Source: an archaeon
Lineage (GTDB): Archaea; Nanobdellota; Nanobdellia; Woesearchaeales; GW2011-AR15
Reading direction: 5' to 3'
Assembly: GCA_043801855.1 (NCBI GenBank)
Contig: JAZDLQ010000017.1
Span: 15,202 to 79,201 of the forward strand
Length of the DNA: 64,000 nt
Part shown: positions 11,979 to 35,463 of the stretch, in pieces
Layout: each line of letters starts with the position of its first letter
Position numbering within the stretch: the stretch's first letter is position 1
The notes under the pieces: generated by a model
What the model saw: the letters and a program-made list of their open reading frames with translations, nothing else
What the model was told of the DNA's origin: nothing
Database searches by the model: none
Made by a program: the position numbers and the translations under genes

Positions 11979-11992
11979 GAAAACAAACAAAT

Positions 11993-12088
11993 GGGCTAGT
12001 GGCCTAGCCTGGATAAGGCGTCTGCCTTCTAATTGGGTAAAACCAAAAAGTGAGCAGAACACCGGGGGTTCAAATCCTCCCTAGCCCA
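11993..12088 (+). tRNA. tRNA-Arg (anticodon UCU) with ~21-nt canonical intron after position 37; no encoded CCA
   Basis: Acceptor GGGCTAG/CTAGCCC + discriminator A. D-arm GCCT-AGCCTGGATA-AGGC. Anticodon stem TCTGC/GCAGA with loop CTTCTAA interrupted by ATTGGGTAAAACCAAAAAGTG. T-arm GGGGG-TTCAAAT-CCTCC. Confidence 0.7.
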
Positions 12089-12198
12089 TTTACTATTTTC
12101 TTACGAAATCAATTGTTATATTTGAAGATAATTTGAACACACAGTCACTTCGTTCCTGTGCGCTTCGTTTCACTCCGCGAATCCTCCCTAGCCCATTT
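12073..12198 (+). repeat. 19-nt direct repeat (AATCCTCCCTAGCCCATTT) duplicating the tRNA 3' end; copies at 12073-12091 and 12180-12198
   Basis: Exact 19-mer found twice, 107 bp apart. The first copy is the T-arm 3' strand + acceptor 3' strand + discriminator of the tRNA. Confidence 0.8.
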
Positions 12199-16167: not shown

Positions 16168-16404
16168 ATGCCAAAATCCCTTGTTGAAGAATTAAATAGT
16201 GTTGCAGATAAAAACCATTTTCTTGATATTAGTGAAGAAATCAGGTTTCTTCTTCGTGAAAAATATTTAAGCTATCATGATCCTTATGCATCAGAACTTG
16301 AAAAAATAAGAAATAATTTATCAAAAGTGACTGTTCCGGAAAAAGTTGATGCATTGAAAAAAGACCTGCAAAAGCTATTGGAGGGGCTAAATGACATCAG
16401 GTAG
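16168..16404 (+). CDS. second RHH-like small protein
   Basis: MPKSLVEELNSVADKNHFLDISEEIRFLLREKYL has the RHH N-terminal strand + helix pattern. Its 3' end overlaps the next gene. Confidence 0.45.
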   Translation: MPKSLVEELNSVADKNHFLDISEEIRFLLREKYLSYHDPYASELEKIRNNLSKVTVPEKVDALKKDLQKLLEGLNDIR

Positions 16405-19724: not shown

Positions 19725-22700
19725 ATGAAAAATAAGCTAAATAAAAAAAGTATTGACAATCTACTTGAAAAAACACTCATTATTTTAGTTTTATCTATAT
19801 CGTTCATGTCTTTATTGTTCTTCAGGGATTTCATTGGATTTGCTTCCTTCCATGCTGCAAGAGGCGGTCAGATATCAGAAATCAATCTTGCGCAGGAAGA
19901 GCCTGCAGAATATTGGAATGGAATCTATGGCTTAGTTATTATGTTTCCTGCAATCAATAATACATGGTCAGTGCTTACGGAAAATGCTGGAATGAATCAG
20001 CTAGTAATGCTGGTGCCATGCCTGCTTGGAGGCCAAGAAAACGAGCTATATGCTGCGAATGTAACATCAGAACAAATAGAATGGGAAAATGTTGTTGCTG
20101 CGGATGCTGAAATCGTTGATGAATACCTTCAGATAAATTCTGGATCACTTATATCAGCAAATAAGACGTTTACAGATACTATGACTATTGAACTTGGTAC
20201 CAGAACAATTTATGATATCCCTATGGTTCACACTTACCAGCGTGATGATCATAACAGCGAAGTGTTTTCGCATGGTGTCTTAACAGATGGAGAGCACATA
20301 ATATTAGTTGCAAAAGTAACAGAAGGATATCCTATGGGATTTGATGGAAACCTTTACAATTACCAGATGTTTGTGCCTGTTCCTTTAAACAGGACAGTCA
20401 GATATTATATATTGACGGATCCATATGACACCTGTCCGGCAGGAGAAGATGTAGGATTAGGAACCGGATATGTATCTGGCTGGGTGACAGACAACTCAAC
20501 TGGGCTTCCGATTGAGAATGCAGAAGTATTTGTCGGAAAAAGTAGTGCTGTTAGTGATGAAGATGGATACTATAATTTTTCTGTCACAGAAGGCACATAT
20601 AAAATAATAGGAATAAAATATGGCTATAACAATTATATAAGTAATATTACTGTCTATTACAGCAATTATACTGAGCATAATATATCAATGACATTATATC
20701 AGGAGCCGCTTACAGGGATAGGTTCAGGTGTCGGTACTGGAGTTGGCCCTGGTCAAACCGACAAGACAAGGACAGGTGTCGGCCCAGGAGTTGGTCCAGG
20801 AGTTGGTCCAAATATCGGACCATATCTAGAAAAACCAGAGCTAATGGGCATAGATCATTTTATTACTCTTGACAAAATTGATAAAAAAATAAGATTGGAC
20901 AATTTCTTTACAGAGACTGTTTTTCTCTATAGTTTTAGGAAAGAAAATGCACTTGTCCAAATAAGGCTTAATGGAAATGTAACAGAAATTGTCGAGATAG
21001 ACAAAGAATCTGTAACAATTGAGCCAAATGGCGTTGCAAATGTGACTGTCACAGGATTCGGAAAAGAGATTGGTGAATATATTGGATCTCTTGACTTTGG
21101 CGGTGATTTTAACGACAGCCTTCCGATTAAAATTAGAGTAACAGATGAAGATAAGCTTCCAGTTGAAGCGCTTCTTATGGAGCTTGAGCTATTGACGCCT
21201 CATCCATATGCTGGTGATTTATACAAATTTAAGCTCAATCTTCATAACATGCTTATTGAAGAAAGGTATAACATTTCTCTCAAATATAAAATCCAAGGTA
21301 TTGAGGCAAGGACATCAAATTATTCAATGGAATTAGAACCAGAAAGTGTTGCAATCTTAACAACAGTATCTCTAATTAAGCAATTTAACATACCGAAAAA
21401 TTGGCCGAAAGGAGAATACCTTCTTGACATTGAGGCCGAGTATCTGGATCTTTATTCAAAAACATCAACTGTTTTTAATGTATATGAGCCTATTTATATG
21501 TATAAGCTTTTTGGAGTTCTTGAGTTATGGAAATTGTTTTTAGGAATTCTTTGCCTTGCAATAATTGTATTTGGTGTGATATTTATTAGGAGGCATATTG
21601 AATCGAAAAAGAGATTCCATGGAAAAGTCGAATATAAATTGCTCCCAAAAAAAGGGCCAAGGTCATTGTATATCGGAAAAATAGCTGAAACTGAAAATGA
21701 TACTTACATGGATATGGATGTATTAACAGTTCACTCAATAATTGCTGGTTCAACAGGCGGCGGTAAATCCATTTCCGGTCAGGATATAGTAGAAGAATGC
21801 CTGCTGAAAAATGTTGCAGTGATAGTTTTTGATCCTACAGCTCAGTGGAGCGGAATGCTCCGAAAATGCTCCGACAAAAAGATGATGGAATTTTATCCAA
21901 GATTTAATATGACGCCAAAAAGCGCAAGAGCTTTTTCCGGCAACATCAGAGCAATTAAAGACCCAAGAGAAAAAGTTGACCTGATGAAATACCTTAAGCC
22001 TGGAGAAATTCAGATATTTACAATGAGCACCCTTGACCCAAAAGGAATTGACATTTTTGTTGCAAATACCGTGAGGGCAATTTTCCAGTCAAACCTTCAG
22101 GAATATAGGGGGCTTAGATATATGATGGTTTACGATGAAGTCCACAGGCTTCTTCCTAAATTTGGCGGAAGTGGCGAAGGCTTCATCCAGATCGAAAGAG
22201 CATGCAGGGAATTCAGAAAATGGGGAATAGGTGTAGTTCTTATTTCCCAAGTCCTGGCGGATTTCGTAGGTCAAATCAAAGCTAACATTAACACAGAAAT
22301 CCAGATGAAAACAAGAGATGAAGGAGATCTTGCAAGAATCGAAACTAAGTATGGAAAAGAATTTTTACAGGGATTAGTAAAGGCGCCAGTTGGTTCAGGA
22401 ATGCTGCAAAATTCGGCATGGAATAGAGGTAAACCGTATTATGTCACATTCAGGCCGATCATGCACAGCGTAACAAGATTGACAGATGAGGAGCTATCAT
22501 TGTACAATAAATATAATGAGATGGTTGATGACTTATCTTACCAGATAGACCAGCTTGAAAAAGAAGAATTAGATGTTTTTGATTTGAGGCTAGAATTAAA
22601 GTTATCTCTTGATAAGATAAAAACTGGAAGTTTTAACATGGTTGATATTTATCTGGAAGGCTTAAAGCCTAGGCTTGAAAAAATGTGGAAGGATCTTGGA

Positions 22701-23555
22701 AAAAAACCTAAAAAAAGAACTTTAGAACTTGTGTCTGAAGATGATATAAAGGCAGATATTGCAGCAGCTCAAAAATCAAGAGAGCAATATGAAAAAGAAA
22801 AAGGGCCCTCTGCCGGAGGAGAAGAAAAAAAAGGCCCTGCATCATTAGGGTTTAATGACGAAGTTCCTCCTGATAAGCTCCTTAACCTCTCAAACGGAAT
22901 GATTGTAATAAGTATGAAAGGGCTTTATGATGAGCTTGTTCCGATGAAAGATTCAGATTATAAAAATGAAGTAAATGAAAACAAGAACACTTTTGCAAAC
23001 TGGATCAGAACAGCATTAAATAGTCCAAAGCTTGCTGATATCGCTGATAATATTATTGCAAAAGAAGATTATCTTGCATTTTTCGATTCAATAAAAGCAG
23101 GAACAGGTGAAAAATTCAAGCCAAAAGCGCCAAGGCCACCAAAGGAGGCAGCAGCACCAGTAGCAGGCTCAGCACCAGTGGCAGCAGCGACACAAGCAGC
23201 ATCTATTGCACCAGTTTATCCTGCAATAGTTCAACCTGTTGCTCAGCCTTCGGTACAAAATTTGCAAGAACAGTCTACGCAGGCAAATGCGTCTTCAGGG
23301 CAATCAGGAGTTGCTCCTCTTGAATTATTCGACGGTACCAGAATTAATAGTTTAAAAGATTTGTTTGAAGCATTGTCAAAAATAGATGATGATACATTTA
23401 TGCTCTACGTTAATGAAGGAAACAATGAATTTGCAGAATGGATAAGAACAAGCCTTAAAGATGAGGCTTTTGCAAATGAAATTTCATCGCTAAAAACAAG
23501 AGAAGAGCTGAAGAAAAAAGTAGAAGAGAAATTAAAAGTCTTAAAAGTTGGTTAA
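19725..23555 (+). CDS. membrane-anchored HerA/FtsK-superfamily (DUF87-like) ATPase with ~600-aa extracellular N-terminal domain and two C-terminal copies of the novel docking domain
   Basis: N-terminal TM. CarboxypepD_reg-like beta-sandwich (GWVTDNSTGLPIENAEVFV..DGYYNF). Elastin-like GVGPG repeats. Second TM LGILCLAIIVFGVIFI. Walker A AGSTGGGKS, Walker B MVYDEVHRLLP, RKWGIGVVLISQ and NTEIQMKTRDEGD motifs typical of HerA/DUF87. Pro/Ala-rich linker. Confidence 0.8.
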   Translation: MKNKLNKKSIDNLLEKTLIILVLSISFMSLLFFRDFIGFASFHAARGGQISEINLAQEEPAEYWNGIYGLVIMFPAINNTWSVLTENAGMNQLVMLVPCLLGGQENELYAANVTSEQIEWENVVAADAEIVDEYLQINSGSLISANKTFTDTMTIELGTRTIYDIPMVHTYQRDDHNSEVFSHGVLTDGEHIILVAKVTEGYPMGFDGNLYNYQMFVPVPLNRTVRYYILTDPYDTCPAGEDVGLGTGYVSGWVTDNSTGLPIENAEVFVGKSSAVSDEDGYYNFSVTEGTYKIIGIKYGYNNYISNITVYYSNYTEHNISMTLYQEPLTGIGSGVGTGVGPGQTDKTRTGVGPGVGPGVGPNIGPYLEKPELMGIDHFITLDKIDKKIRLDNFFTETVFLYSFRKENALVQIRLNGNVTEIVEIDKESVTIEPNGVANVTVTGFGKEIGEYIGSLDFGGDFNDSLPIKIRVTDEDKLPVEALLMELELLTPHPYAGDLYKFKLNLHNMLIEERYNISLKYKIQGIEARTSNYSMELEPESVAILTTVSLIKQFNIPKNWPKGEYLLDIEAEYLDLYSKTSTVFNVYEPIYMYKLFGVLELWKLFLGILCLAIIVFGVIFIRRHIESKKRFHGKVEYKLLPKKGPRSLYIGKIAETENDTYMDMDVLTVHSIIAGSTGGGKSISGQDIVEECLLKNVAVIVFDPTAQWSGMLRKCSDKKMMEFYPRFNMTPKSARAFSGNIRAIKDPREKVDLMKYLKPGEIQIFTMSTLDPKGIDIFVANTVRAIFQSNLQEYRGLRYMMVYDEVHRLLPKFGGSGEGFIQIERACREFRKWGIGVVLISQVLADFVGQIKANINTEIQMKTRDEGDLARIETKYGKEFLQGLVKAPVGSGMLQNSAWNRGKPYYVTFRPIMHSVTRLTDEELSLYNKYNEMVDDLSYQIDQLEKEELDVFDLRLELKLSLDKIKTGSFNMVDIYLEGLKPRLEKMWKDLGKKPKKRTLELVSEDDIKADIAAAQKSREQYEKEKGPSAGGEEKKGPASLGFNDEVPPDKLLNLSNGMIVISMKGLYDELVPMKDSDYKNEVNENKNTFANWIRTALNSPKLADIADNIIAKEDYLAFFDSIKAGTGEKFKPKAPRPPKEAAAPVAGSAPVAAATQAASIAPVYPAIVQPVAQPSVQNLQEQSTQANASSGQSGVAPLELFDGTRINSLKDLFEALSKIDDDTFMLYVNEGNNEFAEWIRTSLKDEAFANEISSLKTREELKKKVEEKLKVLKVG
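20722..20820 (+). repeat. elastin-like (G)VGPG tandem repeats encoded in the ATPase gene
   Basis: GVGTGVGPGQ...GVGPGVGPGVGP at the nucleotide level is GGTGTCGG/GGAGTTGG repeated. Confidence 0.6.
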
Positions 23556-23557
23556 AT

Positions 23558-23779
23558 ATGGTAAATGAACTGATTAAAATTTTTGAAAACAGACGCAGTA
23601 ATTTAGTGAAGTTGCTTGACAATGCAAGGGATGATATGGATGCAGGCAAGCAACATCAGCTCTATGGCGCAATACTGGAGATTGACAATGTGCTTGAGGC
23701 AATGCAGGATTTGCACTGTAAAAATATTTCAAAAAAATTATGTGATCGAAAAGATAACTTATTGAGGCTTAAATGCTGA
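23558..23779 (+). CDS. small helical protein
   Basis: 73 aa, 3 nt after the previous stop. No motif. Confidence 0.4.
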   Translation: MVNELIKIFENRRSNLVKLLDNARDDMDAGKQHQLYGAILEIDNVLEAMQDLHCKNISKKLCDRKDNLLRLKC

Positions 23780-23780
23780 T

Positions 23781-24590
23781 ATGGAAGAAGAAATACCTCC
23801 TGAAAAGTATTTTTATGTACATGATGGAACAATAATAAGATGTATTGATGAGCTTCCGATATACCTTACGAGTATGGATGAGCAGATATTTGTATTCCAT
23901 GTAACTGAAGAAAAAAATGACTTTGCATCCTGGATAATGGGTGTTTTTAACGAATCATTGCTTGCCGAAAAAGTACAAAATTCCAAAACAAAAGACGAAA
24001 TGATTAATATAATAGGAGAATACATGGAAAGCAAAATTGTCCTCTCTGTTAATAATTATAACTCTATCAATGCAGATCAGCCAGCGCAGCAGATACATTC
24101 TTCTTTAGAAAAATATGAAAAAGAAATTTCTGAGCACGGCAATGAAGAACTAAATGGTTTGAAATCTGAGGAGTTAACGGCAATCGACTCGCTAAATCTT
24201 TCAAAAGAGGCTCTGGAAATAAATTCATTAACTACAAATCAAGAACCTGAAAAAATTAAGAAACAAGAAGATCAAAAAACAATATTGAATCAAAATGATA
24301 CAAAAGATAATTACATATATACCTACAAAAGAGGAGAAAAAAATCAAAATAGCATAATTTCAAAAGCATTTTTTTTTCATTATGATGAGTTAAAAAAGAA
24401 AATTTCTGAAAAAAGAAAAAAGGGATATGATACTAGCCATTGCAATTTGTTAATTATGCAAATTCCTTCAAAAATCAAGCTGCTTGAACACTTTTTTTCT
24501 GAAAAAGAGTCGCTGAAGCTCATACACTTATTTTATATTATTAATGAAGAATTAAATATACTTACTAAAAAGGAGATGGTGTTGGCGTGA
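23781..24590 (+). CDS. soluble protein with N-terminal docking domain (F.FHV..EKNDFASWI)
   Basis: N-terminal 75 aa align to the C-termini of the 1276-aa and 1493-aa proteins. The C-terminal LIHLFYIINEELN is shared with the next ORF. Confidence 0.6.
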   Translation: MEEEIPPEKYFYVHDGTIIRCIDELPIYLTSMDEQIFVFHVTEEKNDFASWIMGVFNESLLAEKVQNSKTKDEMINIIGEYMESKIVLSVNNYNSINADQPAQQIHSSLEKYEKEISEHGNEELNGLKSEELTAIDSLNLSKEALEINSLTTNQEPEKIKKQEDQKTILNQNDTKDNYIYTYKRGEKNQNSIISKAFFFHYDELKKKISEKRKKGYDTSHCNLLIMQIPSKIKLLEHFFSEKESLKLIHLFYIINEELNILTKKEMVLA

Positions 24591-25279
24591 AACAAAATAA
24601 GACAAAAACAATTCAAAAAATTGATAAAAATAAAGGTAATAAGGAGTTTATTACGTGCACTGGCCAGAAAATAAAAACACTTATGAGCCTTCCGATTGCG
24701 CTTCGTACAATGGATGACATGTGTTTTTCAGCGCACGTGAATGAAAACAAAAATGATTTTGCAGAATGGGTCATTAATGAAATTGGACAAAAGAACTTAG
24801 GAGAAAGAATGCAAGAGCATAAAGATAAGGCATCGCTCCTTAAATTCCTAGTTGATTACCTTGCAGACAAAACCTTAATTCAGGAAGAACTGCAAAATGG
24901 TAGCATGGCTAATGAAAAAATACCTGTTGGCTTTTTTCAAAATTTAATCTATAAGATAAAAAAGACTCTTCATCTAAAGCAAATTGTTAAACCCAATTTA
25001 AGCGAAGCCATACGTGGAAGGCTTTTTATTAGTAAAGTTAAAGATATATCTGATTTGGAAGTAATATTTAGCGAGTCGCTTGAGGAATACAGGTGGAAAG
25101 TATATAGCTTAAAAAGCCGTGGCGAGAACACACAGGAGTGCCAGCTTTATCTTGGAACAACAGAGATGAAGATTAGAGAATTTGGCCAATATGTAAATGA
25201 AAAAAATGCAATAGATATCCTTCATTTATTCTATTGTCTGGATGATGAAATAAAAAAGCATGAAAATTCCAAGACCTAG
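24587..25279 (+). CDS. paralog of the previous ORF (docking-domain protein)
   Basis: ALRTMDDMCFSAHVNENKNDFAEWVINEIG at the N-terminus and ILHLFYCLDDEIK at the C-terminus. 4-nt start/stop overlap with the upstream gene. Confidence 0.6.
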   Translation: MKQNKTKTIQKIDKNKGNKEFITCTGQKIKTLMSLPIALRTMDDMCFSAHVNENKNDFAEWVINEIGQKNLGERMQEHKDKASLLKFLVDYLADKTLIQEELQNGSMANEKIPVGFFQNLIYKIKKTLHLKQIVKPNLSEAIRGRLFISKVKDISDLEVIFSESLEEYRWKVYSLKSRGENTQECQLYLGTTEMKIREFGQYVNEKNAIDILHLFYCLDDEIKKHENSKT

Positions 25280-25348
25280 ATTTATAAACTAGATTAAAAT
25301 ATCAAGATATCACAGCAATACTTGTAATTATTAAAAAAGAGGTTGAAT

Positions 25349-26449
25349 ATGTGGCCGTTTAAGCCAAAATTTGCAAGAATAGAAGACCAGCAGGAAAAAA
25401 AAGAGGATGAGTCAGCGGTAGCTGCGCCTAGCAATGATGATTTTCAAGGGAAATCTTCTGATTCTATGCTTGGCGCTGAAATTATGAAATTAAAAGCGCA
25501 GTTTGACCAATTTTCAGAGCTTCGAAAAGTATTTAATGAACGCTTTACAAGAATAAACGAGCAGATTGGGGAACTTCGTGGAATGATAATGGATACTAAT
25601 CGTTCCATGCAGGATGTAGAAGTAAAAACTGTAAAAGCAGTTGACTTGGTAAGCGCAGTTCAGCCAGATAAGCTAATGGTTGAAGTAAAAAAGCAGGATG
25701 CAAAAATTGAGGCACTCAAAGCTAATATAGAAAGTAACGAAGCTATTATGAAATCAATTCTTGACCAGCTAAAAGATATGAGAATACAAGTGTCAAAATT
25801 CAGAGGAGTTGACCAGATTGTTTCTTTATCTGAAGATGTAAAAAAAGAGCTGATGAACATCAAAAAAGTAGAGGCAACTCTTGAGCGACACTCTGATAAG
25901 GTTGAAGGAATATTTATGGAATCACAAAAACGGTTCCAGGATTTTGAGAGAGTTGTAAACAAGCAGGCGGACTTTGACAAGCAGGTGAAAGCAATTCAAG
26001 AGCAGTCTGATCAGCTTAAAATTAAGATTCCCGTTTTTTCAACAAAAAAGGAGATGGAAGATCTTCAGGGTAAATACAATGAATTTGAAAAACACACTGC
26101 AAATGTAATTGATCTTGTTACAAAAAGAGCAAATGATCTTCCTGTCGAGATAAACGACAGATTTGCTCGCTTTGAAAAAAATATAAACAGTGCATTTGAA
26201 AAAAAGATAAGAAAAACAGATGAAACAAATAAATTGATTTCAGAAATTGAAAAAAAAGCACAGAAAATTGCCAAAGAATTAAAACTTCACCAGGCAACCA
26301 CTGAAAAAAAAGAGGAAGGAGCGTCTCTAATAAATTCAGATATGCCAAAAGCTGAAAATAAGGATGAAGCTCCATCAAAAGAGGCAACTGAAAAAAAAGC
26401 AAGATTCTTAGAAGGGCTGTTTAAGAAAAAAGAGAAAGAAAAGAAATAA
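25349..26449 (+). CDS. coiled-coil protein
   Basis: ~366 aa dominated by heptad-like K/E-rich segments. The listed ORF starts at TTG 25343, but ATG 25349 (MWPFKPK) with an upstream GAGG is more likely. Confidence 0.5.
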   Translation: MWPFKPKFARIEDQQEKKEDESAVAAPSNDDFQGKSSDSMLGAEIMKLKAQFDQFSELRKVFNERFTRINEQIGELRGMIMDTNRSMQDVEVKTVKAVDLVSAVQPDKLMVEVKKQDAKIEALKANIESNEAIMKSILDQLKDMRIQVSKFRGVDQIVSLSEDVKKELMNIKKVEATLERHSDKVEGIFMESQKRFQDFERVVNKQADFDKQVKAIQEQSDQLKIKIPVFSTKKEMEDLQGKYNEFEKHTANVIDLVTKRANDLPVEINDRFARFEKNINSAFEKKIRKTDETNKLISEIEKKAQKIAKELKLHQATTEKKEEGASLINSDMPKAENKDEAPSKEATEKKARFLEGLFKKKEKEKK

Positions 26450-26483
26450 TTAATTTGTGAACTTTTTTGCTTTTTGAAGTTCA

Positions 26484-28337
26484 TTAGCGTAAATCAATAG
26501 GAGTAATAGTCTCTTTTTTGAATTTCTCTTTGGCTTCTGCCAGCCTTTTTCGCTGCTGCATTAGGTGCTCATGGAAAATAATTGGGACATCTTGCTCATC
26601 AGCATATATTTTTTCTATTCGCAGTAGCCTGTCCAAAAGCTTTTCAGTTCTGATTGAAAAGAGCTTAACATAGTCTTCTTTTGAGAAATCTCTGTTAAAA
26701 GTTTTTCTGAATAATAATTGCAAATCATCGTACTTAGGAATAAATCCAATTGGTGTTTCAATTGCATCATATTCGTTGTGAATTCTTCCTTCCATCCACA
26801 AAAGCCACACCTTTTTATCAACTTTTTGATTCAAGAATTTTCCGTTTTCCTTAAGGAAATAATTGGTTGCAAAGATTTTAGGAGTTTCATCAAGTATTTC
26901 TCCAAACTTTAAGTGATTATTGATGTAAGTTCCTAGCGGAATAACTAAAAAATCCATATTTGCCATTGGGTCATGAACTCTTACTCCTTCCTGGCCTATT
27001 TTTGCTGATGTTGTCTCTGATTCAAGAGCACTACCGATAAATACGCCATGCGACCAGCTAAGTGATTCAATTACAGGCGGACTAGTATCTGAATCCCTTC
27101 CACCATAAATAATTCCTGAGACAGGAACTCCTTTCTTATTGTGAAGATTAGGATCTGCATTTTCAAGTTCATTAATCCTAATTGTATATCTTGCATTTTT
27201 ATGTGCTGGAAGTATCTCTTTTCCATCATGTCCCATCTTTCCCTCACTCCACTCGCCTGAAAAATTTTCTCCATTAGCTGGAAGCTCTTGCCCCATTCCA
27301 AGCCAATAAGGGTTTCCATTTTTTACCAGTATATTAGACATGATAAGTTCTCTTTTTGTTGTAAGGGCCTTATGGATGACTGGATCATCAATAGGATTTA
27401 TATCCTGAATTATTCCAAAAATTCCCTGTTCAACATTTGCAGCATAGCACAGGCCGTCTTCTCCTGCCCGGAGATATGAAATATCATCACCTATAATTGA
27501 TTGGCCAGGAACCATTGCAGTAGATGTTTTCCCGCATGCGCTTGGGAACGCTCCAGTAAAATAAGTAACTCTTTCTTTTCCAGGAGGATGCACTCCCATC
27601 ACAAACATGTGCTCGCAAAGCCAGCCTTCCCTATTTGCTTTACTGATCGCAAGCCTTAGCGCAAGCTTTTTTAGCCCTACACTGTTGCCTGCATATTGAT
27701 TGTTTATTGTAAAAACTCTTTCTTCTTCTAGATCCATATAGATTCTTCTTTTGTCAACATCTATTGAATTATTATTTGAAGTAAGTTTTCCAGCTGAATG
27801 GATAAAATGAAAAAATTTATCCGTTCCATTTAAGTTGACAAATTCATCATATCCTTTCCGATAAAGTATAGATTCGCTGTGTGCAACATATGCAGAATCA
27901 GTTATCTGCAGTGCAGGAATTGAAAATATTGATTCGTTTGGCCCAAGGCAAAAAAAGCACACGAGCATTTCTTTTCCTTCCATTATTCCATCCAGGAGAT
28001 TAAGTATTTCATCTAATCCATCATCCCTGTCAATTGTATTAATAGATTTTGAAAGCATCTTTCCCTTTGGAAGGAGAATTTTTGTATTTTGTGCATCCCT
28101 GCCCTGATCAAAATAACCATCAAAATGAATCGTGTGGCCAGAAATATTAAGAGGCTTCTCCTCACAATTTTTTAACGAAAGCGTTCTAATGTATTCAAGA
28201 TCCTCGTCTGATCCGCTAAGCACAGTAATTTTTCTCGGTCTGCATAGCTTTGCATATTTTTCAATTATTGAATCCACATGTGAATTATTTAATTTAGCAA
28301 GCTTTTTAGCGCTGTTTTTATCCATTAACTCATTCAT
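26484..28337 (-). CDS. pckG: phosphoenolpyruvate carboxykinase (GTP)
   Basis: Kinase-1a signature FPSACGKTSTAM, 617 aa, and a GIIYGGRDSDTSPPV C-terminal nucleotide-binding region typical of GTP-PEPCK. Confidence 0.85.
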   Translation of the reverse strand: MNELMDKNSAKKLAKLNNSHVDSIIEKYAKLCRPRKITVLSGSDEDLEYIRTLSLKNCEEKPLNISGHTIHFDGYFDQGRDAQNTKILLPKGKMLSKSINTIDRDDGLDEILNLLDGIMEGKEMLVCFFCLGPNESIFSIPALQITDSAYVAHSESILYRKGYDEFVNLNGTDKFFHFIHSAGKLTSNNNSIDVDKRRIYMDLEEERVFTINNQYAGNSVGLKKLALRLAISKANREGWLCEHMFVMGVHPPGKERVTYFTGAFPSACGKTSTAMVPGQSIIGDDISYLRAGEDGLCYAANVEQGIFGIIQDINPIDDPVIHKALTTKRELIMSNILVKNGNPYWLGMGQELPANGENFSGEWSEGKMGHDGKEILPAHKNARYTIRINELENADPNLHNKKGVPVSGIIYGGRDSDTSPPVIESLSWSHGVFIGSALESETTSAKIGQEGVRVHDPMANMDFLVIPLGTYINNHLKFGEILDETPKIFATNYFLKENGKFLNQKVDKKVWLLWMEGRIHNEYDAIETPIGFIPKYDDLQLLFRKTFNRDFSKEDYVKLFSIRTEKLLDRLLRIEKIYADEQDVPIIFHEHLMQQRKRLAEAKEKFKKETITPIDLR

Positions 28338-28392
28338 CTTTACACCTTATTTATTGTTTTAATACGAGCTGTCCTAACATTTAATGCGAGTA

Positions 28393-29709
28393 CTATTTTT
28401 TAAAAAAATCCTCGCACGCATTATAAATGTTATCGAACAATTGTTTCATATCTTTTTGCGCAACGCTTGAAAACGCAATCCTCAGCATATTTTTTATTGA
28501 TATTACCCCTGTATCATATTTAGAAAGAAGAATGTGCCTTATTTTTTCAGAATCTAATCCTTCTTGTAGTTTTATGCACATAAAATAGCCTGAGTTAAAT
28601 GGAACTGGAGAAAAGTGCTTCTCATATTTTTTGTCGCGTAATGTTTCTTTTATTTTTTCATACCTTCCTTTAAGGATATCGAATTTCTTCTTTTTTTCAG
28701 AAATATATTCAAGTGAATTAATAGATTTTAGCACAAGGCTTTGGGATAAGTGCGGCGCATTTGAAATGCTTCCCCTTACAGCTCCTGCTGTTTTATCTTC
28801 AAGAGCTTTGTAGCTTTCTGCATTTAGCCCTTTTGATGCATAAGTAATAAATCCAACCCTTAGTCCCCATGCATAATCTTCTTTTGTTGCGCCGTCTAAT
28901 TTTACAGCAAGGACATTTTCATGAATATTTGCTAAAAGAGTAAATATTGACTCACTGTAAATTCCATCTTCAAATACAAGGCCAAAATACGCATCGTCGC
29001 AGATTACAATTATTTTATTTCCTTTTACAGCAGCTTTCTTAATTATTTCTGCAATCTCTTTTACCTCTGAATTTGTTGGAGTATATCCTGTAGGGTTATT
29101 CGGAAAATTAAGAAGGACTATTTTTTTCCCGAAATTTTCATTTAATTTATTGTTCAGTGCCTCAGTGTCAAAGTGCTTTTCTACAAACGTATTAAATGTG
29201 TCGAGACTCGCGCCGTACGCATTTTCGAAAATAAGCCTGTAATTTCCCCATAATTTATCTGCAAGAATTATTTTGTCTCCTTGGTTTACAAATAAATAGC
29301 CTATCATGGAAAGCCCATGCGTAAGGGCGCAGGTAACAACAGGCTCTGAGACATTTGCCTTGAGGCTTGGGTTTTTTTTGTATATAAGATTCTTCCAAGC
29401 AGTTCGAAGTTCTGGCTTGCCATAGCTTCCTGCATAGGAAAAAGCATCTTTTGGGTCTATTCCAATATATTTTGATATTGTTGAAAGCCGCATAGGTGTT
29501 CCATCATCTTCAATTGCAGCTCCTATTGTTGCATTAATTTTCTTTCCTTTGGCCTGTGCGCTTTGTGCTAATATTCCTTCCTTTGGAAAATATATTGCTT
29601 TTCCTTTTTCAGATAATAAGTCGTATATTATAGGGTTTGCCTTCTCTATAATGCTGTTAAGCTCTTCTGCCTGCATATTTATTGCTGCCATAACAAAGGA
29701 GAATGGCAA
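28393..29709 (-). CDS. class I/II PLP-dependent aminotransferase
   Basis: NPTGYTPTNSEVKEIAEII...IVICDDAYFGLVFEDG and the PLP-lysine region ATKEDYAWGLRVGF (K...G.R.G). Confidence 0.75.
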   Translation of the reverse strand: MPFSFVMAAINMQAEELNSIIEKANPIIYDLLSEKGKAIYFPKEGILAQSAQAKGKKINATIGAAIEDDGTPMRLSTISKYIGIDPKDAFSYAGSYGKPELRTAWKNLIYKKNPSLKANVSEPVVTCALTHGLSMIGYLFVNQGDKIILADKLWGNYRLIFENAYGASLDTFNTFVEKHFDTEALNNKLNENFGKKIVLLNFPNNPTGYTPTNSEVKEIAEIIKKAAVKGNKIIVICDDAYFGLVFEDGIYSESIFTLLANIHENVLAVKLDGATKEDYAWGLRVGFITYASKGLNAESYKALEDKTAGAVRGSISNAPHLSQSLVLKSINSLEYISEKKKKFDILKGRYEKIKETLRDKKYEKHFSPVPFNSGYFMCIKLQEGLDSEKIRHILLSKYDTGVISIKNMLRIAFSSVAQKDMKQLFDNIYNACEDFFKK

Positions 29710-29851
29710 TGCTCTTTTAAATCTATTTGCAAAGCTATTATATTATATATTTTCGAAAAATTTATATATTGTAAAATTTCAATAAATATCAATAAATTAT
29801 TTTTATTATAATAATATTGATAAAAATTGATAATTTTCACAAAGTGATTTT

Positions 29852-30022
29852 ATGAGAAAGCCAAAACCAAAAAAGACAAGATTATGGCTCTATGTAGATG
29901 AGAAAATCCTTTCGTGGGTATATGAAAAAATGGAAAAAAAAGAGTATTCAGATGAGTCGCACTGCTTTGAGCGGCTTGTCATGGAAAAAATGAATTCAGA
30001 AGAAGTAAATGGAGCTAAGTAA
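29852..30022 (+). CDS. small protein (56 aa) upstream of the KaiC-like gene
   Basis: MRKPKPKKTRLWLYVDEKILSWVYEKMEKK... A basic N-terminus plus helix may indicate a small regulator. Below the ORF-track cutoff. Confidence 0.3.
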   Translation: MRKPKPKKTRLWLYVDEKILSWVYEKMEKKEYSDESHCFERLVMEKMNSEEVNGAK

Positions 30023-30045
30023 TTTAAAAAAATAAGGTGAAATAA

Positions 30046-30915
30046 ATGGAAAATCAAAAATCAGAGATTCTAAAAAATAATTCTATTACAGACACAGCGC
30101 TCGATTACGATGCAGCAACGCATATAGGCTCGTCGCAGGGAGAAGGCTTACCGCAAAATAAAGTCTACACAATGAAATACCTAAAAACAGGAGTTCCTGG
30201 TTTTGATGAGCTTATTGATGTTGGTATTCCTCGTGGCTCGCAAGTTCTTATATCAGGCGGGCCTGGGACGTCAAAAACTACTTTTTGCCTGCAGCTTCTT
30301 GTACATGGGGCAAAAAACAATGAAAAATGTCTTTTTTTGTCTTTTGAAGAAGATACAGAAAAGCTAATTTATTATATGAGAAAATACGGCTGGGATCCTG
30401 ATGAGCTTATAAAAAATGGTAATCTATTAATAAAAAAGCTTGACCCATTTAAAATTTCAAGAAGCGTTGAGACTCTTTTGGCACAAGCAAGAGGAGAGCT
30501 TTTAATTGAGACAAACCAAGTTAAGGATTTAATACCAGATGATTTTATTCCGGACAGAATTGTTCTTGATTCACTATCTGCTGTTGCGGCAGGATTTTTT
30601 GGAAAAGACGAAGGCTATAGGGCTTACATCAGCCAGATATTTGATACCTTTAGAAAAATTGGGGCAACTTCATTTTTAATTTCAGAAATAGAGCACTCGA
30701 CAACTAAATACAGCCAGTCTGGAGTTGAGGAATTTTTAGCTGATGCGGTTTTTGTCTTTTATAATCTGAGGCAAGGAACACAGAGGATTAACGCAACTGA
30801 AATTGTGAAAATAAGAGGGACATCACATAAAAAAAGAATAGTTCCGTTTAAGATTAATTCAGGAAAAGGCGTTGTTGTATATCCTATGGAAGAATTATTT
30901 TTTGATGATAAATAA
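30046..30915 (+). CDS. KaiC/RadA-like single-domain ATPase
   Basis: GVPGFDELIDVGIPRGSQVLISGGPGTSKTTFCLQLLVHG (KaiC-type Walker A) and downstream LDSLSAV core strands. 289 aa. Confidence 0.75.
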   Translation: MENQKSEILKNNSITDTALDYDAATHIGSSQGEGLPQNKVYTMKYLKTGVPGFDELIDVGIPRGSQVLISGGPGTSKTTFCLQLLVHGAKNNEKCLFLSFEEDTEKLIYYMRKYGWDPDELIKNGNLLIKKLDPFKISRSVETLLAQARGELLIETNQVKDLIPDDFIPDRIVLDSLSAVAAGFFGKDEGYRAYISQIFDTFRKIGATSFLISEIEHSTTKYSQSGVEEFLADAVFVFYNLRQGTQRINATEIVKIRGTSHKKRIVPFKINSGKGVVVYPMEELFFDDK

Positions 30916-30968
30916 TAATTAGCTTGAATATTCGAACTATATTTATGAACCAAAAAAAGAGGTGAAAA

Positions 30969-33900
30969 TTGGCAGAAAAAAAGTTAGCTAAAAAATCAAT
31001 ATTATTTATGCTAGCTTTTGCTCTGCTTATCTTTTTAATTATTTTTTCACTGCCGCAGATTTTTGCGCCAGCAGGAAGAATCTGCAATTCAACATCACCC
31101 TGCGCATGCGGCAGCGCCTGCAACTCTGGCAATGAAGTTTCAAATGGATATAATACTATAGACAGCTGTCGGGATGGCCCAAATTATAATTACGAATGGA
31201 TCCACGATATTAATATAACAAACCAGAACGACTCTGTTTTTAACGGGCACGATACTGTTCAAGCAGATGCTTTCTTAAACTGCGATCTTGACGGCGATTC
31301 TGTTTCTTTTGCTTATAATAACGGCAGCGGCTGGAAAAATGTGGGTGATGCAACATGCTCTGTTGACGGATATTCACATAGATACCAAAATATAACTTTA
31401 GATAATGTAAGAGGATATCACACAATAAGGGTAATAATTTCGCCTACTGCGTATGGCGGAAGAACTGGGATGACGTGCGGATACACTTATGATACAGGAT
31501 ATTCTGATTCAGATGATGTTAGCCTTTACGTTCTTTTATCAGGTCAGGTAGTGGATTTAGTGATGCCATCAGTAAGAAACTTAAATCCATCAGGCACTGA
31601 ATTCAATTACCAAAACAATCTTGTAATTAATATTTCAGCAAACGTCTCTGATAATATTAACGTAAGCACAGTTTTCGCAAATGTTTCCTGGTCAACAAAA
31701 AATGAGTTAATAAGCCTTGCGCATGTTGGAAATGGGATTTATCTTGGCAATTTTACAAACACAAGTTTTCTTGGCATCTACAATTATACTCTAATTGCAA
31801 ATGATACTTTAAACAACATAAACCAGACAGTAAAAAATTATTTCATAATCAATATGACTTCAAATATTACAGTTTACTCTCCTGTTTCAAACAGCGTTTA
31901 CAAATATCAGGAAACTGATTTCTTTTTTGAGATACCTGCTTTATATGGAGCAGATTTTGTGTGGTATTATTTAGAAGGATATTCTACTGAATTTGCAAAC
32001 GATAATTACAAGCTGTCTTTTGAAGAAAGCGGAAGCGAAGAAGAAGAGATCTCCCAGGCAAGCGTTGATTTAACAAATATCTCGCAGTCGTTTGCTACTG
32101 TTTATGGAATGAATATAAACAAAATCTCACTTAAGATTAAAAAAACAGGAAACCCTGAGAACTCAACTGTTGAAATAAAGGATAATTCAGGCTATCCGCT
32201 AAATAATGCAATTGCAACTGCAAACATAACTTCAGATGATGTTTCTGAAGGATCTTTTGAATGGGTTAACTTGACATTTAACCAGACTGTTTCTTTAAAC
32301 GCAGATACAACTTACTGGATATATTTAATTTCAAATGGAACTGAACAAAATTTTTATGAATTTGAGATAAATTCACAAAGCGCATATGCTGGCGGAAACT
32401 TAAGCAACAATGCAACAAAAGATATGCTCTTTAGGCTATATGACAATAAAAAATACCTGATAAGAGATATTGATTTGGAAAGGCAGGAATATAATGTCCA
32501 ATTTTTTGCAAACCATTCTGTTTTTCCGCAGATTGAATCCGAATACATTACTTTTATTGTAGATTATACTCCTCCTGTGATAAGCGATCTAACTTACACA
32601 CCTTCAGATAGCGATGGGCTTGATCCAGGCACTCCAATAAATGTATCATTGATGGTTTCAGATGAGCTGGCAGGAGCAAATGCTACCCTTCGTTATATGC
32701 ATGAAGATGATGATGACTGGTCAGTTTTTGAGATGGAAAATAAGACTGGTTATTTTGAAGGGAATTTTACGCCTGATAGGGAAGGCCAATGGTATTTTTC
32801 GATTTATGTAATTGACTCTTCATTTAATGATGATTCAATTGAAAACAATGAGCTTGACGTGCGCTATGAATACAACTGGTCAATAACACCAAATGTATTT
32901 AATTCAACAGGCGGAATGCTTGGCACAAATATAACAATTGGGACTCTATTGATAAATAATAGCGCGGACTTTACATATGAATTCAATGTATCGCCTCTCC
33001 AGGCATCTCCTATAATTTATATCAATGAATCAGTCCAGAGATTAATTACACTAGATCCAGGAGAAACAATTTCATATCAGATAATAGGAACTACAAAAAA
33101 TTCGCTTTCAACAGATTATATAAATATATTAGTTGATGCGCAAAACGACACAGCATCACCGCAATCTTATTACAGTAATATTACATTGATATCTGTTTTA
33201 AGCGGCCCATTTTTGCATGTTGATATTGTAGACTATTCATCAACTGTTGTCCAGGGAAGCCATGTAAATACAATCAAGGCAAGAATAACAAATGTTGGAA
33301 ACGAGACAGCTTTTAATGTCAGTGCAAACTGGACTCTTCCAGAAGGATGGACAAGCAGGGAAGCAACAAACCTTACTTATGATAATATATCTTCTGGCGG
33401 TTATGACTCAAAAGAATATACAATTAGCGCTGATGTTTCATCGAGTGCGCCATTAGGTGCAGCCCTGATTGAAATTATTGTAAACTGCAGTGAAGGAAGC
33501 AGTGATTCTGACACAAGAACTGTTACTGTTACATCAGCTAGCCAGGATGATAATAACCAAAATAATAACAATAATAATGATAACAATGGAGGCGGTGGCG
33601 GTGGCTCAACAGGCGGCGGCTCAACAGGCGGTGGCTCAACTGTTTATGTGCGTGACCCAAAGCTTGAAATAAATATATCTGATTTTGAAATTATCCGCGG
33701 CCAAAAAAAAGAATTTGCTTTTAGCATCATGAATAATGTATCTGATATAATATTTGGTTCTATAAATTTTAGCATTGAAGGCCTTTATAAAAATTATTAT
33801 AATATCACACCAAATGAAATATTGAACTTTAGCTATGAGGAAAAAGAAGAGATAAAAATCATCATAATTGCGCCAATCTATATGCAGGCAGGCAAGCATG

Positions 33901-35450
33901 ATTTTGTCTTAAAAGCAATAACAGACCAAGGTGTTTTTTCAGATGAATTCAGTTTGATTGTTTTTGATTCTGCTATTAGTAATATCTCATGTCTTGATGA
34001 ATCTTTAAGATTAGTAGATGAACTTGAAATTGCTGGTTTTAATGTAAACAAGCTTAAGGAAGATTATGAAAAAGCAAGTTATCTTAATAACTTAAAAAAT
34101 TACAAAGAGCTATTATCTGCTTGCGATATGATAAAACTTTCTGCTGCTAATGCAATAAAAACAAAAGAAGGCTTACAAAAAATAGAAGATGAAATAATCA
34201 GTCTTAAAGCGCAAGGTTACAACATAAATGCTGCGAATTCTTCGTTAAGTGAATCTTTGCTTCTTCTTAACAGCGGCGAATTTGACAAGGCATATGTGGC
34301 GCTGAAAGATTCAATATTTCTTTTAGACATAACAAAAAAAACAGGAAAGCCGCTGCCAATTGCAGTAGGAGATTTTATAAAAAAAAATCTGGTTGCAATT
34401 TTACTTGGCTTAATTGCTATAGCTATATTCATAACGCTTAGCGTAAAGCATATTGCGCTTGTTACAATGAAAAGAAAGCTTAGATTATTAAAAAGTGAAG
34501 AAAAAGAGATAATGAAGCTTTTTTGCAATATTCAAAAAGAACATTTTGAAGATAAGATTATGGGAACCAGACTTTATTTAAAATACATGGATGAATACAG
34601 GGCCAGGCTTGCAAAAATAAAAGAAGAAACTATAAGGCTTGAGTTAAATATATTGAACAATGGCTCATCACGACATGGCTTAAATGAGCATAGAAAAAGA
34701 ATTGAGCGGCTTGTTATTGATATCCAGGATTCCTACTATAATAAAAAGGTGCTTGATAAATCATCATATGAAAAAATGCTATATATCTATCAGCAGCAGC
34801 TTGCGTCGCTTGATGAAAAAATATTGCTTACCAAAAAAAACAAGAGCCACAAAAATGAAGAGAAAAAAGAGCAATTAACAGAAGCTACATTTTTGAATAG
34901 TAGATATGATAAAAATCTAGATTTGCATAGTACTCAAGAAGAAAATAAGCAACAAGAAGCTGAAAAAAGTGAGTATGAAGTTGATTATGATGAAGAGCAT
35001 ATTGTATCCGAATCTTCTGGCAAACAAGGTACAAATGATGATTTGTTAGTTCAAGAAGAGAACTTAACTTCGGAAGATAATTTGCTTGCAAGTAAAAAAC
35101 ACACAGCAGTGCTAAACTATCTCTTACATAGAGATGATTCAGATAGCACTCTTAATGAAGAAAATAATTATAGGCAAAAAGAGCCGGAAAAAAATATCTC
35201 TGCTGAAAAATATTTTATTCTTTCAGACGGAAGAAAAATTGATTCAATAGATAATTTGCATACTATTCTTCTGGAAATTACAGATGAAACATTTGCTTAT
35301 CATGTTTCACAAAGCCGAAATGATTTTTCAGATTGGATTACAAATGTATTTAATAATAAAGAACTTGGAGAAAAAATACAGGCTGCAAAAACAAGGAAGG
35401 AAATAATAACAGTGCTTGATAATTTTTTAAGTGAAAATGAAAAAGACTAA
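30969..35450 (+). CDS. 1493-aa type-I surface protein with a Cys-rich N-terminus, N/G-rich linker, C-terminal TM, cytoplasmic coiled-coil/acidic tail ending in the docking domain; TTG start
   Basis: GAGGTGA RBS 6 nt upstream of TTG. Signal/anchor SILFMLAFALLIFLIIFSL. CNSTSPCACGSACNSG. Linker NNQNNNNNNDNNGGGGGGSTGGGSTGGGS. TM LVAILLGLIAIAIFITLSV. C-terminus ..ITDETFAYHVSQSRNDFSDWITNVF... Confidence 0.8.
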   Translation: MAEKKLAKKSILFMLAFALLIFLIIFSLPQIFAPAGRICNSTSPCACGSACNSGNEVSNGYNTIDSCRDGPNYNYEWIHDINITNQNDSVFNGHDTVQADAFLNCDLDGDSVSFAYNNGSGWKNVGDATCSVDGYSHRYQNITLDNVRGYHTIRVIISPTAYGGRTGMTCGYTYDTGYSDSDDVSLYVLLSGQVVDLVMPSVRNLNPSGTEFNYQNNLVINISANVSDNINVSTVFANVSWSTKNELISLAHVGNGIYLGNFTNTSFLGIYNYTLIANDTLNNINQTVKNYFIINMTSNITVYSPVSNSVYKYQETDFFFEIPALYGADFVWYYLEGYSTEFANDNYKLSFEESGSEEEEISQASVDLTNISQSFATVYGMNINKISLKIKKTGNPENSTVEIKDNSGYPLNNAIATANITSDDVSEGSFEWVNLTFNQTVSLNADTTYWIYLISNGTEQNFYEFEINSQSAYAGGNLSNNATKDMLFRLYDNKKYLIRDIDLERQEYNVQFFANHSVFPQIESEYITFIVDYTPPVISDLTYTPSDSDGLDPGTPINVSLMVSDELAGANATLRYMHEDDDDWSVFEMENKTGYFEGNFTPDREGQWYFSIYVIDSSFNDDSIENNELDVRYEYNWSITPNVFNSTGGMLGTNITIGTLLINNSADFTYEFNVSPLQASPIIYINESVQRLITLDPGETISYQIIGTTKNSLSTDYINILVDAQNDTASPQSYYSNITLISVLSGPFLHVDIVDYSSTVVQGSHVNTIKARITNVGNETAFNVSANWTLPEGWTSREATNLTYDNISSGGYDSKEYTISADVSSSAPLGAALIEIIVNCSEGSSDSDTRTVTVTSASQDDNNQNNNNNNDNNGGGGGGSTGGGSTGGGSTVYVRDPKLEINISDFEIIRGQKKEFAFSIMNNVSDIIFGSINFSIEGLYKNYYNITPNEILNFSYEEKEEIKIIIIAPIYMQAGKHDFVLKAITDQGVFSDEFSLIVFDSAISNISCLDESLRLVDELEIAGFNVNKLKEDYEKASYLNNLKNYKELLSACDMIKLSAANAIKTKEGLQKIEDEIISLKAQGYNINAANSSLSESLLLLNSGEFDKAYVALKDSIFLLDITKKTGKPLPIAVGDFIKKNLVAILLGLIAIAIFITLSVKHIALVTMKRKLRLLKSEEKEIMKLFCNIQKEHFEDKIMGTRLYLKYMDEYRARLAKIKEETIRLELNILNNGSSRHGLNEHRKRIERLVIDIQDSYYNKKVLDKSSYEKMLYIYQQQLASLDEKILLTKKNKSHKNEEKKEQLTEATFLNSRYDKNLDLHSTQEENKQQEAEKSEYEVDYDEEHIVSESSGKQGTNDDLLVQEENLTSEDNLLASKKHTAVLNYLLHRDDSDSTLNEENNYRQKEPEKNISAEKYFILSDGRKIDSIDNLHTILLEITDETFAYHVSQSRNDFSDWITNVFNNKELGEKIQAAKTRKEIITVLDNFLSENEKD
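33546..33641 (+). repeat. low-complexity poly-Asn / (STGGG)n coding repeat
   Basis: AATAATAAC repeats followed by GGCTCAACAGGCGG x3. Confidence 0.6.
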
Positions 35451-35463
35451 AGGATTTGCAAAA

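Follow-up and report, generated by a model that had tools for sequence, protein, structure and literature searches.

Single units of the DUF5752/OrfY family on a HerA-like membrane ATPase, a giant surface protein and two soluble proteins of a DPANN archaeon

DUF5752 (Pfam family PF19027) is a domain of about 210 residues that consists of two tandem units, and its structural representative is OrfY of Thermoproteus tenax, a small stand-alone protein of 216 amino acids (aa; PDB entry 4CSO). The PDB molecule name of 4CSO, 'OrfY protein, transcription factor', is a label of the depositors, and a literature search on DUF5752, PF19027, OrfY and 4CSO returned neither a publication on the domain nor support for this label; orfY is not mentioned in a 2013 paper on T. 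tenax. Here we analysed a 64,000-nucleotide stretch of DNA from an archaeon of the Woesearchaeales (GW2011-AR15; GenBank assembly GCA_043801855.1, contig JAZDLQ010000017.1, positions 15,202–79,201 of the forward strand; 'the window' denotes this whole stretch), in which five segments of four proteins (that is, two in a membrane ATPase of the HerA/FtsK superfamily, one in each of two soluble proteins and one in a 1493-aa surface protein) are each one 'OrfY unit', or half of the two-unit DUF5752 family. An initial annotation, made from the sequence of the window, had taken these segments for an undescribed family; as they belong to a catalogued one, the novelty is reduced to new contexts for a catalogued domain, not a novel domain.

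Membership of DUF5752 leaves the mechanism unexplained, and the setting in the window differs from that of OrfY in two respects. Whereas OrfY carries its units in tandem, three of the four window proteins have single units, and the two of the ATPase stand apart, separated by a disordered linker of ~70 residues; and whereas OrfY is small and stands alone, the window has its units on a membrane ATPase, on a giant surface protein and on soluble proteins that are specific to their operon. In its position on the ATPase, the unit resembles FtsK gamma and the adaptor domains of type IV coupling proteins, which are likewise small C-terminal domains on a membrane FtsK/HerA motor and select the target of that motor. 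We tentatively favour, without calling it probable, the reading that the unit is a portable adaptor or binding module that does its work in pairs.

Five copies of one unit in the window

The copies are listed below (open reading frames (ORFs) are named by their first position). Leave-one-out E values are those with which a profile built from any four units matches the fifth, scaled to the 920 six-frame fragments of the window.

22866–23105, plus strand: unit A1, residues 1048–1127 of ORF 19725 (the ATPase); leave-one-out E 1.3e-12
23106–23306, plus strand: linker between A1 and A2, rich in Pro, Ala and Gln by sequence and predicted to be disordered in a model of the tail
23307–23546, plus strand: unit A2, residues 1195–1274, at the extreme C-terminus of ORF 19725; leave-one-out E 1e-17
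23796–24035, plus strand: unit B, at the N-terminus of the soluble 269-aa ORF 23781
24635–24874, plus strand: unit C, at the N-terminus of the soluble 230-aa ORF 24587; leave-one-out E 8.9e-20
35199–35438, plus strand: unit D, residues 1411–1490, at the extreme C-terminus of the 1493-aa ORF 30969 (the surface protein); leave-one-out E 1.5e-23

The five ~80-aa units align without internal gaps at 20–38% pairwise identity (pairwise BLASTP E 2e-17 to 7e-3), and the leave-one-out E values, from 1e-12 to 3e-24, confirm the repetition as genuine. A1 is the most divergent copy, with EVNENKNTF instead of HVNxxKNDF; unit C bears the family consensus motif HVNENKNDFxxW. A search of the 920 fragments with the five-unit profile found no sixth copy in the window (best unrelated fragment, E 0.27). 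Translation of the ORFs and the alignment bear out the positions that the initial annotation gave for all five segments, and its descriptions of the hosts hold as well: the ATPase has two predicted transmembrane segments, a DUF87/HerA domain and a Walker A motif, the two soluble ORFs have no predicted transmembrane segment, and unit D lies on the tail of a surface protein. One point needs correction: the copies fall into two separate plus-strand clusters, with a minus-strand phosphoenolpyruvate carboxykinase gene and an aminotransferase gene between them.

A similarity that arose by chance, from low complexity or through recent local duplication, with no shared function, is excluded in our judgement. 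ORFs 23781 and 24587 are indeed full-length tandem paralogs (23% identity over 252 aa, E 1e-15), so that one of the five copies derives from local gene duplication; however, the low pairwise identity implies that the copies are old, and the leave-one-out values, a confidently folded AlphaFold2 model (predicted local distance difference test (pLDDT) score 94), 4,944 matching clusters in a global library and the retention of copies at the same positions in orthologs that are 30–69% identical all speak against such an origin.

Relationship to DUF5752 and OrfY

All four host proteins match PF19027. Only the ATPase does so above the gathering score of 23 bits (25.9 bits), through A2, the sole unit copy that passes it; A1 gives no PF19027 stretch of its own. 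ORFs 24587, 30969 and 23781 score 19.1, 16.9 and 15.0 bits, below the cut-off, with E values of 9e-4 to 0.016. The matches fall on two separate regions of the 208-position model (that is, ~54–84 or 122–188), which indicates that the DUF5752 model spans two units, and OrfY itself holds two unit-like stretches (residues 64–88 and 167–191), each centred on NDFxxW; the single units are therefore half a DUF5752. In a search with a profile of the five units plus four close relatives, 4cso_A is matched at E 1.1e-6, and the alignment includes both of its NDF..W loops; with a profile of full-length unit proteins, the E value is 7e-4. ORFs 23781, 24587 and 30969 have one unit each and the two of the ATPase are separated by the linker and show no predicted packing, such that the window proteins are single-unit relatives of DUF5752 rather than canonical two-unit members.

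The AlphaFold2 model of unit B (pLDDT 94.2) consists of a beta-hairpin followed by five helices and, as predicted, agrees in fold with OrfY; the model thus supports the view that the segment is a genuine, independently folding cytoplasmic domain. ORFs 23781 and 24587 and the surface protein are annotated by NCBI as 'hypothetical', and neither NCBIfam nor PADLOC has a family for the unit proteins. Two other, weak matches to known structures were set aside: that of unit positions 9–55 to the C-terminal region of the exosome helicase MTR4 (residues ~679–725, 6c90_A; E 0.04–0.08) is probably noise, and that of the C-terminal part of the unit proteins to the thermosome (E 0.024) was taken as noise.

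The family is large. An exhaustive profile search of 1.84 billion representatives (clusters at 50% identity) matched 4,944 clusters at E ≤ 1e-3, of which 3,757 remain at E ≤ 1e-10. Its consensus, F-x-L-x-[ND]-G ... L ... L ... F-x-x-H-V-N-x-x-K-N-D-F-A-x-W-I ... L-A, is dominated by W (conserved in 98%), N (93%), G (91%), H (87%) and D (84%) and includes a polar loop with conserved H, K, N and D (H-V-x-x-x-K-N-D-F-x-x-W). At least two units are present in ~83 of the best 150 representatives. The 97 matches of at least 200 aa include DUF5752 in 82 cases, DUF87/HerA in 8, KaiC in 5 and a FlaC coiled-coil model in 6. Other members combine units with a coiled coil or are membrane proteins, either tail-anchored or large, and many relatives consist of nothing but units plus a coiled coil or a C-terminal membrane anchor.

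Nucleic-acid binding, a function suggested by the name given to 4CSO, seems highly improbable for the unit. A place at the C-terminus of an FtsK/HerA-type motor does recall FtsK gamma, a C-terminal domain that reads DNA for its motor, and 21% of the units in the family have an isoelectric point (pI) above 8. However, FtsK gamma is a basic winged-helix DNA reader, whereas the unit is acidic and not a winged helix, so that the fold also disfavours this function. The units of the window have pI values of 4.5–6.1 (acidic to near-neutral) and the family median is 5.6; as units are mostly acidic, protein binding fits better than nucleic-acid binding. Moreover, units occur on proteins without any connection to DNA, namely at the tails of surface proteins and on tail-anchored membrane proteins, and the depositors' label found no backing in the literature search.

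The ATPase cluster

The first cluster (cluster 1) contains four of the five units and comprises the following genes.

16391–19723, plus strand: surface protein with PKD and MopE motifs, 1110 aa, with a C-terminal transmembrane segment and a helical cytoplasmic tail of ~150 aa, without a unit; first gene of the cluster
19725–23555, plus strand: membrane ATPase of the HerA/FtsK superfamily, 1276 aa, identified by Pfam matches, transmembrane prediction and motifs
23558–23779, plus strand: ORF of 73 aa between the ATPase gene and ORF 23781, absent from the initial annotation and without a family match
23781–24590, plus strand: soluble protein, 269 aa, with unit B, a variable linker and a conserved C-terminal helical region of ~90 aa
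24587–25279, plus strand: soluble protein, 230 aa, which begins with unit C; the start of the ORF and the stop codon of ORF 23781 overlap
25343–26449, plus strand: coiled-coil protein, 368 aa, with weak SMC-like matches only; last conserved gene of the cluster

From its N-terminus, the ATPase has a transmembrane segment, an extracellular part of ~560 aa with a CarboxypepD_reg domain, a second transmembrane segment, the P-loop ATPase, a coiled coil, A1, the linker and A2. The predicted transmembrane segments start near residues 13 and 595, the DUF87/HerA match is clear (PF01935, E 3.2e-9, 37.7 bits against a cut-off of 23.2), and the Walker A (AGSTGGGKS) and Walker B (VYDEVHRLLP) motifs are nearly invariant across 15 sequences; as two transmembrane segments and the Walker A/HerA domain precede them, A1 and A2 are cytoplasmic. 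The ATPase matches none of the characterised subfamilies compared (HerA repair helicase, CedD, VirB4/TraC, coupling proteins and anti-phage HerA): FtsK_SpoIIIE, TrwB and CedD models are matched weakly, far below every curated family cut-off, and NCBIfam matches reach 14–28 bits against cut-offs of 325–1400. PADLOC returned generic HerA and mad8 only, and a reading as a defence system was dropped given that these HerA matches are generic. A literature search (DPANN with DUF87 or FtsK-HerA) yielded nothing on this ATPase cluster. The extracellular part of the ATPase also carries elastin-like G-V-G-P-G repeats (GIGSGVGTGVGPG...GVGPGVGPGVGPNIGP; ~20709–20822, plus strand).

In a two-unit model of the ATPase tail, A1 is predicted with pLDDT above 90 and the linker falls below 50 at model residues 108–123 and 130–154. 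No packing of A1 against A2 is predicted and the arrangement seen in OrfY is not reproduced, which leaves intramolecular A1–A2 pairing unsupported.

The initial annotation's proposed co-occurrence of the unit with HerA-like membrane ATPases and giant surface proteins is not confined to the window, since both clusters recur in relatives (loci and proteins outside the window are numbered with L and P, respectively). Orthologs of the ATPase, at 39–69% identity, are found in Woesearchaeota, Nanoarchaeota and Pacearchaeota (DPANN), some of them already tagged PF19027. Cluster 1 is conserved in L001, L003, L004, L005, L017, L038, L040 and L042 in the order PKD surface protein, HerA-like membrane ATPase, protein of 72–75 aa, one or two proteins with an N-terminal unit, and coiled-coil protein. 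A homolog of the PKD protein lies directly upstream of the ATPase in six of these (L001, L003, L004, L005, L017 and L042), and the 368-aa coiled-coil protein is 40–64% identical in L001, L003, L004, L005, L038 and L040. Counterparts of the 73-aa ORF occupy the same position in L001 (72 aa, 48% identity, E 5e-19) and L003 (75 aa, 34%, E 1e-7), so that the ORF is probably a genuine small gene and part of the operon.

Downstream of the ATPase, a unit protein is encoded in the window, L001, L003, L004, L040 and L042, and full-length homologs of ORF 23781 follow the ATPase gene in L001, L003, L038, L040 and L042; elsewhere, a single gene stands where the window has the tandem paralogs. These soluble proteins have a second conserved region, the C-terminal ~90 residues of ORFs 23781 and 24587 and of their orthologs in L001, L003 and L004 (ELK-K-SELRK-G-DT---L-LM-I-PKIK...LF...E), which has no match in Pfam, NCBIfam or the PDB and may contact the ATPase or the coiled-coil protein.

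Among 46 members of the ATPase family that were scored, the first unit (the A1 position) is kept in 36, whereas the terminal unit (the A2 position) is variable: ~18 members have it, some lack it, and in others TPR repeats take its place. TPR repeats were confirmed at residues ~1207–1375 in P0160, P0163, P0178, P0184 and P0187; many orthologs combine such a replacement with a retained first unit. TPR repeats are an established protein–protein interaction module, and this swap of the terminal unit, with unit 1 retained, points to a protein-binding role. The TPR repeats share with A2 only the extreme C-terminal position and are unrelated to it in fold and sequence; the likeness is thus one of functional analogy, and the swap is suggestive only. 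In L004 (10001–13894), where the ATPase tail bears TPR repeats, the downstream protein bears two tandem units.

The KaiC and surface-protein cluster

The second cluster (cluster 2) contains unit D and has three genes.

30046–30915, plus strand: KaiC-like ATPase of the RecA superfamily, 289 aa (PF06745, E 2.7e-50)
30969–35450, plus strand: surface protein, 1493 aa, with an N-terminal transmembrane or signal segment, a large extracellular part, a transmembrane segment near residue 1135, a cytoplasmic tail and unit D
35431–36804, plus strand: membrane protein, 457 aa, after the surface protein; its transmembrane segment and membrane-proximal tail resemble those of ORF 30969

ORF 30046 scores below the cut-offs for circadian KaiC and for ArlH and is therefore a generic archaeal single-domain KaiC-like protein. 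In ORF 30969, a basic stretch follows the second transmembrane segment, and a tail of ~250 residues of coiled coil or low complexity leads to unit D, which is kept at the C-terminus in the orthologs P0198, P0199, P0200, P0201 and P0205 and in L026. The extracellular part of this protein has a low-complexity run of Asn, Gly and Ser/Thr (NNQNNNNNNDNNGGGGGGSTGGGSTGGGST) at residues ~870–905. The 457-aa protein is 25% identical to the 1493-aa protein over 85 aa (E 3e-4), with a common D-x-Y-Y-N-K-K motif, and the two may associate through a shared juxtamembrane coiled coil. Genes for proteins of 441–448 aa stand in the place of the 457-aa gene in L044 and L045, and a homolog was confirmed by BLAST in L026. 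Cluster 2 as a whole (that is, KaiC-like ATPase, unit-tailed surface protein of ~1,400–1,490 aa and membrane protein of ~450 aa) is conserved in L001, L044, L045 and L026.

Genes for HAMP-HisKA-HATPase histidine kinases, PAS/GAF proteins and response regulators flank cluster 2 in the window (37257–38918 and 39453–42020, both plus strand), in L044 (12635–16092) and in L001 (19695–22108). This suggests that a two-component system controls the cluster or relays signals from it.

The KaiC-like gene lies directly upstream of the unit-tailed surface protein in all four loci examined (the window, L001, L044 and L045), and 5 of the 97 representatives of at least 200 aa, together with L007 and L040, are fusions of a unit with KaiC. 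Such fusions join one to three units to a KaiC-like domain (L007:4491–5549, plus strand; L040:5589–6677, plus strand; P0015); that of L040 is inside cluster 1, directly after the coiled-coil gene and before an ortholog of ORF 30046 (68% identity).

These arrangements could also be read as direct binding of the unit, in the role of a heterotypic partner domain, to P-loop ATPases of the RecA/HerA superfamily. Unit D would then bring the neighbouring KaiC-like ATPase to the tail of the surface protein, and the HerA-like hexamer itself, not the units on it, would be the target of the units in ORFs 23781 and 24587. By Rosetta-stone logic, both the unit–KaiC and the unit–HerA fusions are consistent with such binding, as are the gene order in the four loci and the lack of a second unit nearby in L044 and L045. 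Direct ATPase binding nevertheless seems unlikely to us, given that the members in glycogen operons (see below) have no ATPase beside them, that it leaves the frequent occurrence of units in twos unexplained and that the similarity to ViaA is weak.

Unit genes in archaeal glycogen operons

The distribution of the unit was surveyed by a scan for the back-translated motif NENKNDFxxW in one genome per GTDB species, which is biased to units with the exact consensus. It gave 38 loci, in 34 of which the unit was confirmed by a hidden Markov model (HMM); L020, L028, L041 and L043 are without a unit, and the bacterial L019, one of the 34, is marginal (E 1.7e-4), these five being excluded from the analysis of neighbours. 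The confirmed loci belong mostly to Woesearchaeota, Pacearchaeota, Nanoarchaeota, Methanosarcinales and Altiarchaeota. In viral contigs, the motif had one match, which the HMM did not confirm.

In a Pfam scan of 119 neighbouring ORFs, enzymes of alpha-glucan metabolism predominated, with Glycos_transf_1 (14), Glyco_transf_5 (10), GH57 (9), the eukaryote-type Glycogen_syn (6) and NTP_transferase (2). The domain is widespread in archaea, and the commonest setting of small unit genes outside the window is an operon for glycogen synthesis: 11 of the 34 loci have a tight same-strand operon in the order GT4/5, GH57, unit gene, unit gene, GT3 glycogen synthase and NTP transferase (L006, L009, L010, L023, L024, L025, L027, L029, L030, L031 and L035; for example, L035:520–7960, minus strand), some with one small unit gene and others with two, the glycogen synthase being of the eukaryote-type GT3 family (PF05693). 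The operon occurs in Woesearchaeota, Nanoarchaeota, Methanosarcinales and Altiarchaeota. We know of no description of a glycogen operon with unit genes, although no dedicated search of the literature was made. In T. tenax, orfY adjoins treT, the trehalose synthase gene.

To judge from this gene context, the unit proteins seem to belong integrally to archaeal glycogen synthesis, and the domain is not specific to the coupling of surface proteins with ATPases. The unit in the proteins of the glycogen operons is that of the window and has the consensus HVNENKNDFxxW, as does unit C; these proteins occur in the same phyla (Woesearchaeota and Nanoarchaeota) and, in addition, in Methanosarcinales and Altiarchaeota. 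They are, however, small (~90–270 aa) and stand beside carbohydrate enzymes, whereas in the window the units form part of membrane machinery. The window ORFs scanned include no gene for a glycosyltransferase, GH57 or glycogen synthase, such that the association with alpha-glucan or trehalose metabolism does not extend to the window.

The operon brings in another explanation, a serious competitor of the one that we favour, namely that the unit, probably as a pair, is a small-molecule-sensing module in the manner of CBS (Bateman) or ACT pairs, binding an alpha-glucan or energy metabolite (for example, a sugar phosphate, a nucleotide sugar, trehalose or a maltooligosaccharide) and modulating the attached or neighbouring enzyme or ATPase. 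The embedding of small unit genes in a conserved operon of several archaeal groups fits this well, as do the place of orfY next to treT in T. tenax, the polar loop with H, K, N and D, the histidine-kinase and PAS genes beside cluster 2 in the window, L001 and L044, and the occurrence of the unit as lone proteins, tandem pairs and promiscuous fusions (with HerA- and KaiC-like ATPases and the tails of membrane proteins), as known for CBS and ACT. The likeness to CBS and ACT is one of distribution only (that is, small paired units, lone archaeal proteins and promiscuous fusions), there being no similarity in sequence or fold. Sensing appears somewhat unlikely on balance, given that many members have no output domain, just a coiled coil or a membrane anchor, that the tail of the 1493-aa protein offers nothing for a unit to regulate, that the replacement of the terminal unit by TPR repeats in orthologs of the ATPase points to protein binding, and that the window ORFs scanned include no glycogen genes.

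A possible working of the unit

Building on the domain, its fold, its family membership and cytoplasmic location, and the conservation of both operons, we infer that units pair and that they have binding partners among the products of neighbouring genes. The idea of pairing derives from the two-unit build of DUF5752/OrfY and from the frequency of tandem and split pairs: in ~14 of the 34 loci, two single-unit genes abut or overlap on one strand, with ~11–90 nucleotides between the units in ten of them, an arrangement that resembles a tandem protein split in two. A two-unit protein of the OrfY type would be complete in itself, and single-unit proteins would pair with each other. In the HerA-like ATPase and the giant surface protein, the units end a cytoplasmic tether that is coiled-coil or disordered, and together with those that head the two soluble proteins of the ATPase operon, they could then hold the operon products together under the membrane, through unit–unit pairing or through binding of a unit to the neighbouring KaiC- or HerA-like ATPase. 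Homotypic docking between units, as the initial annotation had proposed, is a plausible hypothesis that draws indirect support from the tandem and split pairs, the flexible tethers and the exchange for TPR repeats in orthologs, although the structural model of the two ATPase units predicts no packing between them.

As to the placement, the disordered Pro/Ala/Gln-rich linker before A2, the tail of ~250 residues before D and the existence of unit-only and membrane-anchored relatives suggest a recruitment domain. An adaptor is further supported by the conservation of a unit-protein gene next to the ATPase, by the adjacency of KaiC, by the unit–KaiC fusions and by the acidity of the units.

Several observations weigh against an adaptor that works in pairs. 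In the adjacent gene pairs, the upstream and downstream units are 36% identical within loci and 33–37% between loci and do not form two classes, so an ancient obligate heterodimer is not indicated. L044 and L045 have no second unit within 7 kb of that of the surface protein, and lone unit proteins of ~100 aa number in the hundreds in the family and are many among the best 150 representatives. The polar loop, which is strongly conserved, might just as well bind a ligand, and in the setting of the glycogen operons (11 of 34 loci), one would expect a metabolite sensor or an enzyme regulator no less than a docking module.

A combined view, more speculative and in our estimation decidedly unlikely, would make the unit a switch module, widespread in archaea, in which two units associate, perhaps under the control of an alpha-glucan metabolite, to organise the enzymes of glycogen synthesis and, in DPANN archaea, to couple HerA- and KaiC-like ATPases to the tails of giant surface proteins. 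If this were true, carbon or energy status would be linked to an undescribed cell-surface machine of episymbiotic archaea. If the unit is the pairing or adaptor module that we favour, it would help to account for the connection between cytoplasmic motors and the very large surface proteins of DPANN archaea, and if it is a metabolite sensor, it would represent a new regulatory domain of archaeal carbon storage. In each case, a large family with a crystal structure gains concrete contexts, that is, the glycogen operon and two DPANN membrane clusters, all of which appear to be undescribed.

Other features of the window

A further ORF begins at 48729 and runs past the end of the window (48729–64000, plus strand); it exceeds 5,090 codons and has a signal-like segment at its N-terminus. 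Just upstream of it are a second KaiC-like ATPase gene (46035–46745, minus strand) and a gene for a 370-aa protein (44887–45999, minus strand), and L003 has the same layout, with a KaiC-like gene, a gene for a protein of ~367 aa and a 5,520-aa surface protein. In L004 and L005, proteins of 4,000–4,900 aa are encoded beside the ATPase cluster. The sole RNA gene found in the window, for tRNA-Arg(TCT), occupies 11992–12089 on the plus strand; its 98 nucleotides leave room for an intron, which fits an archaeal origin.

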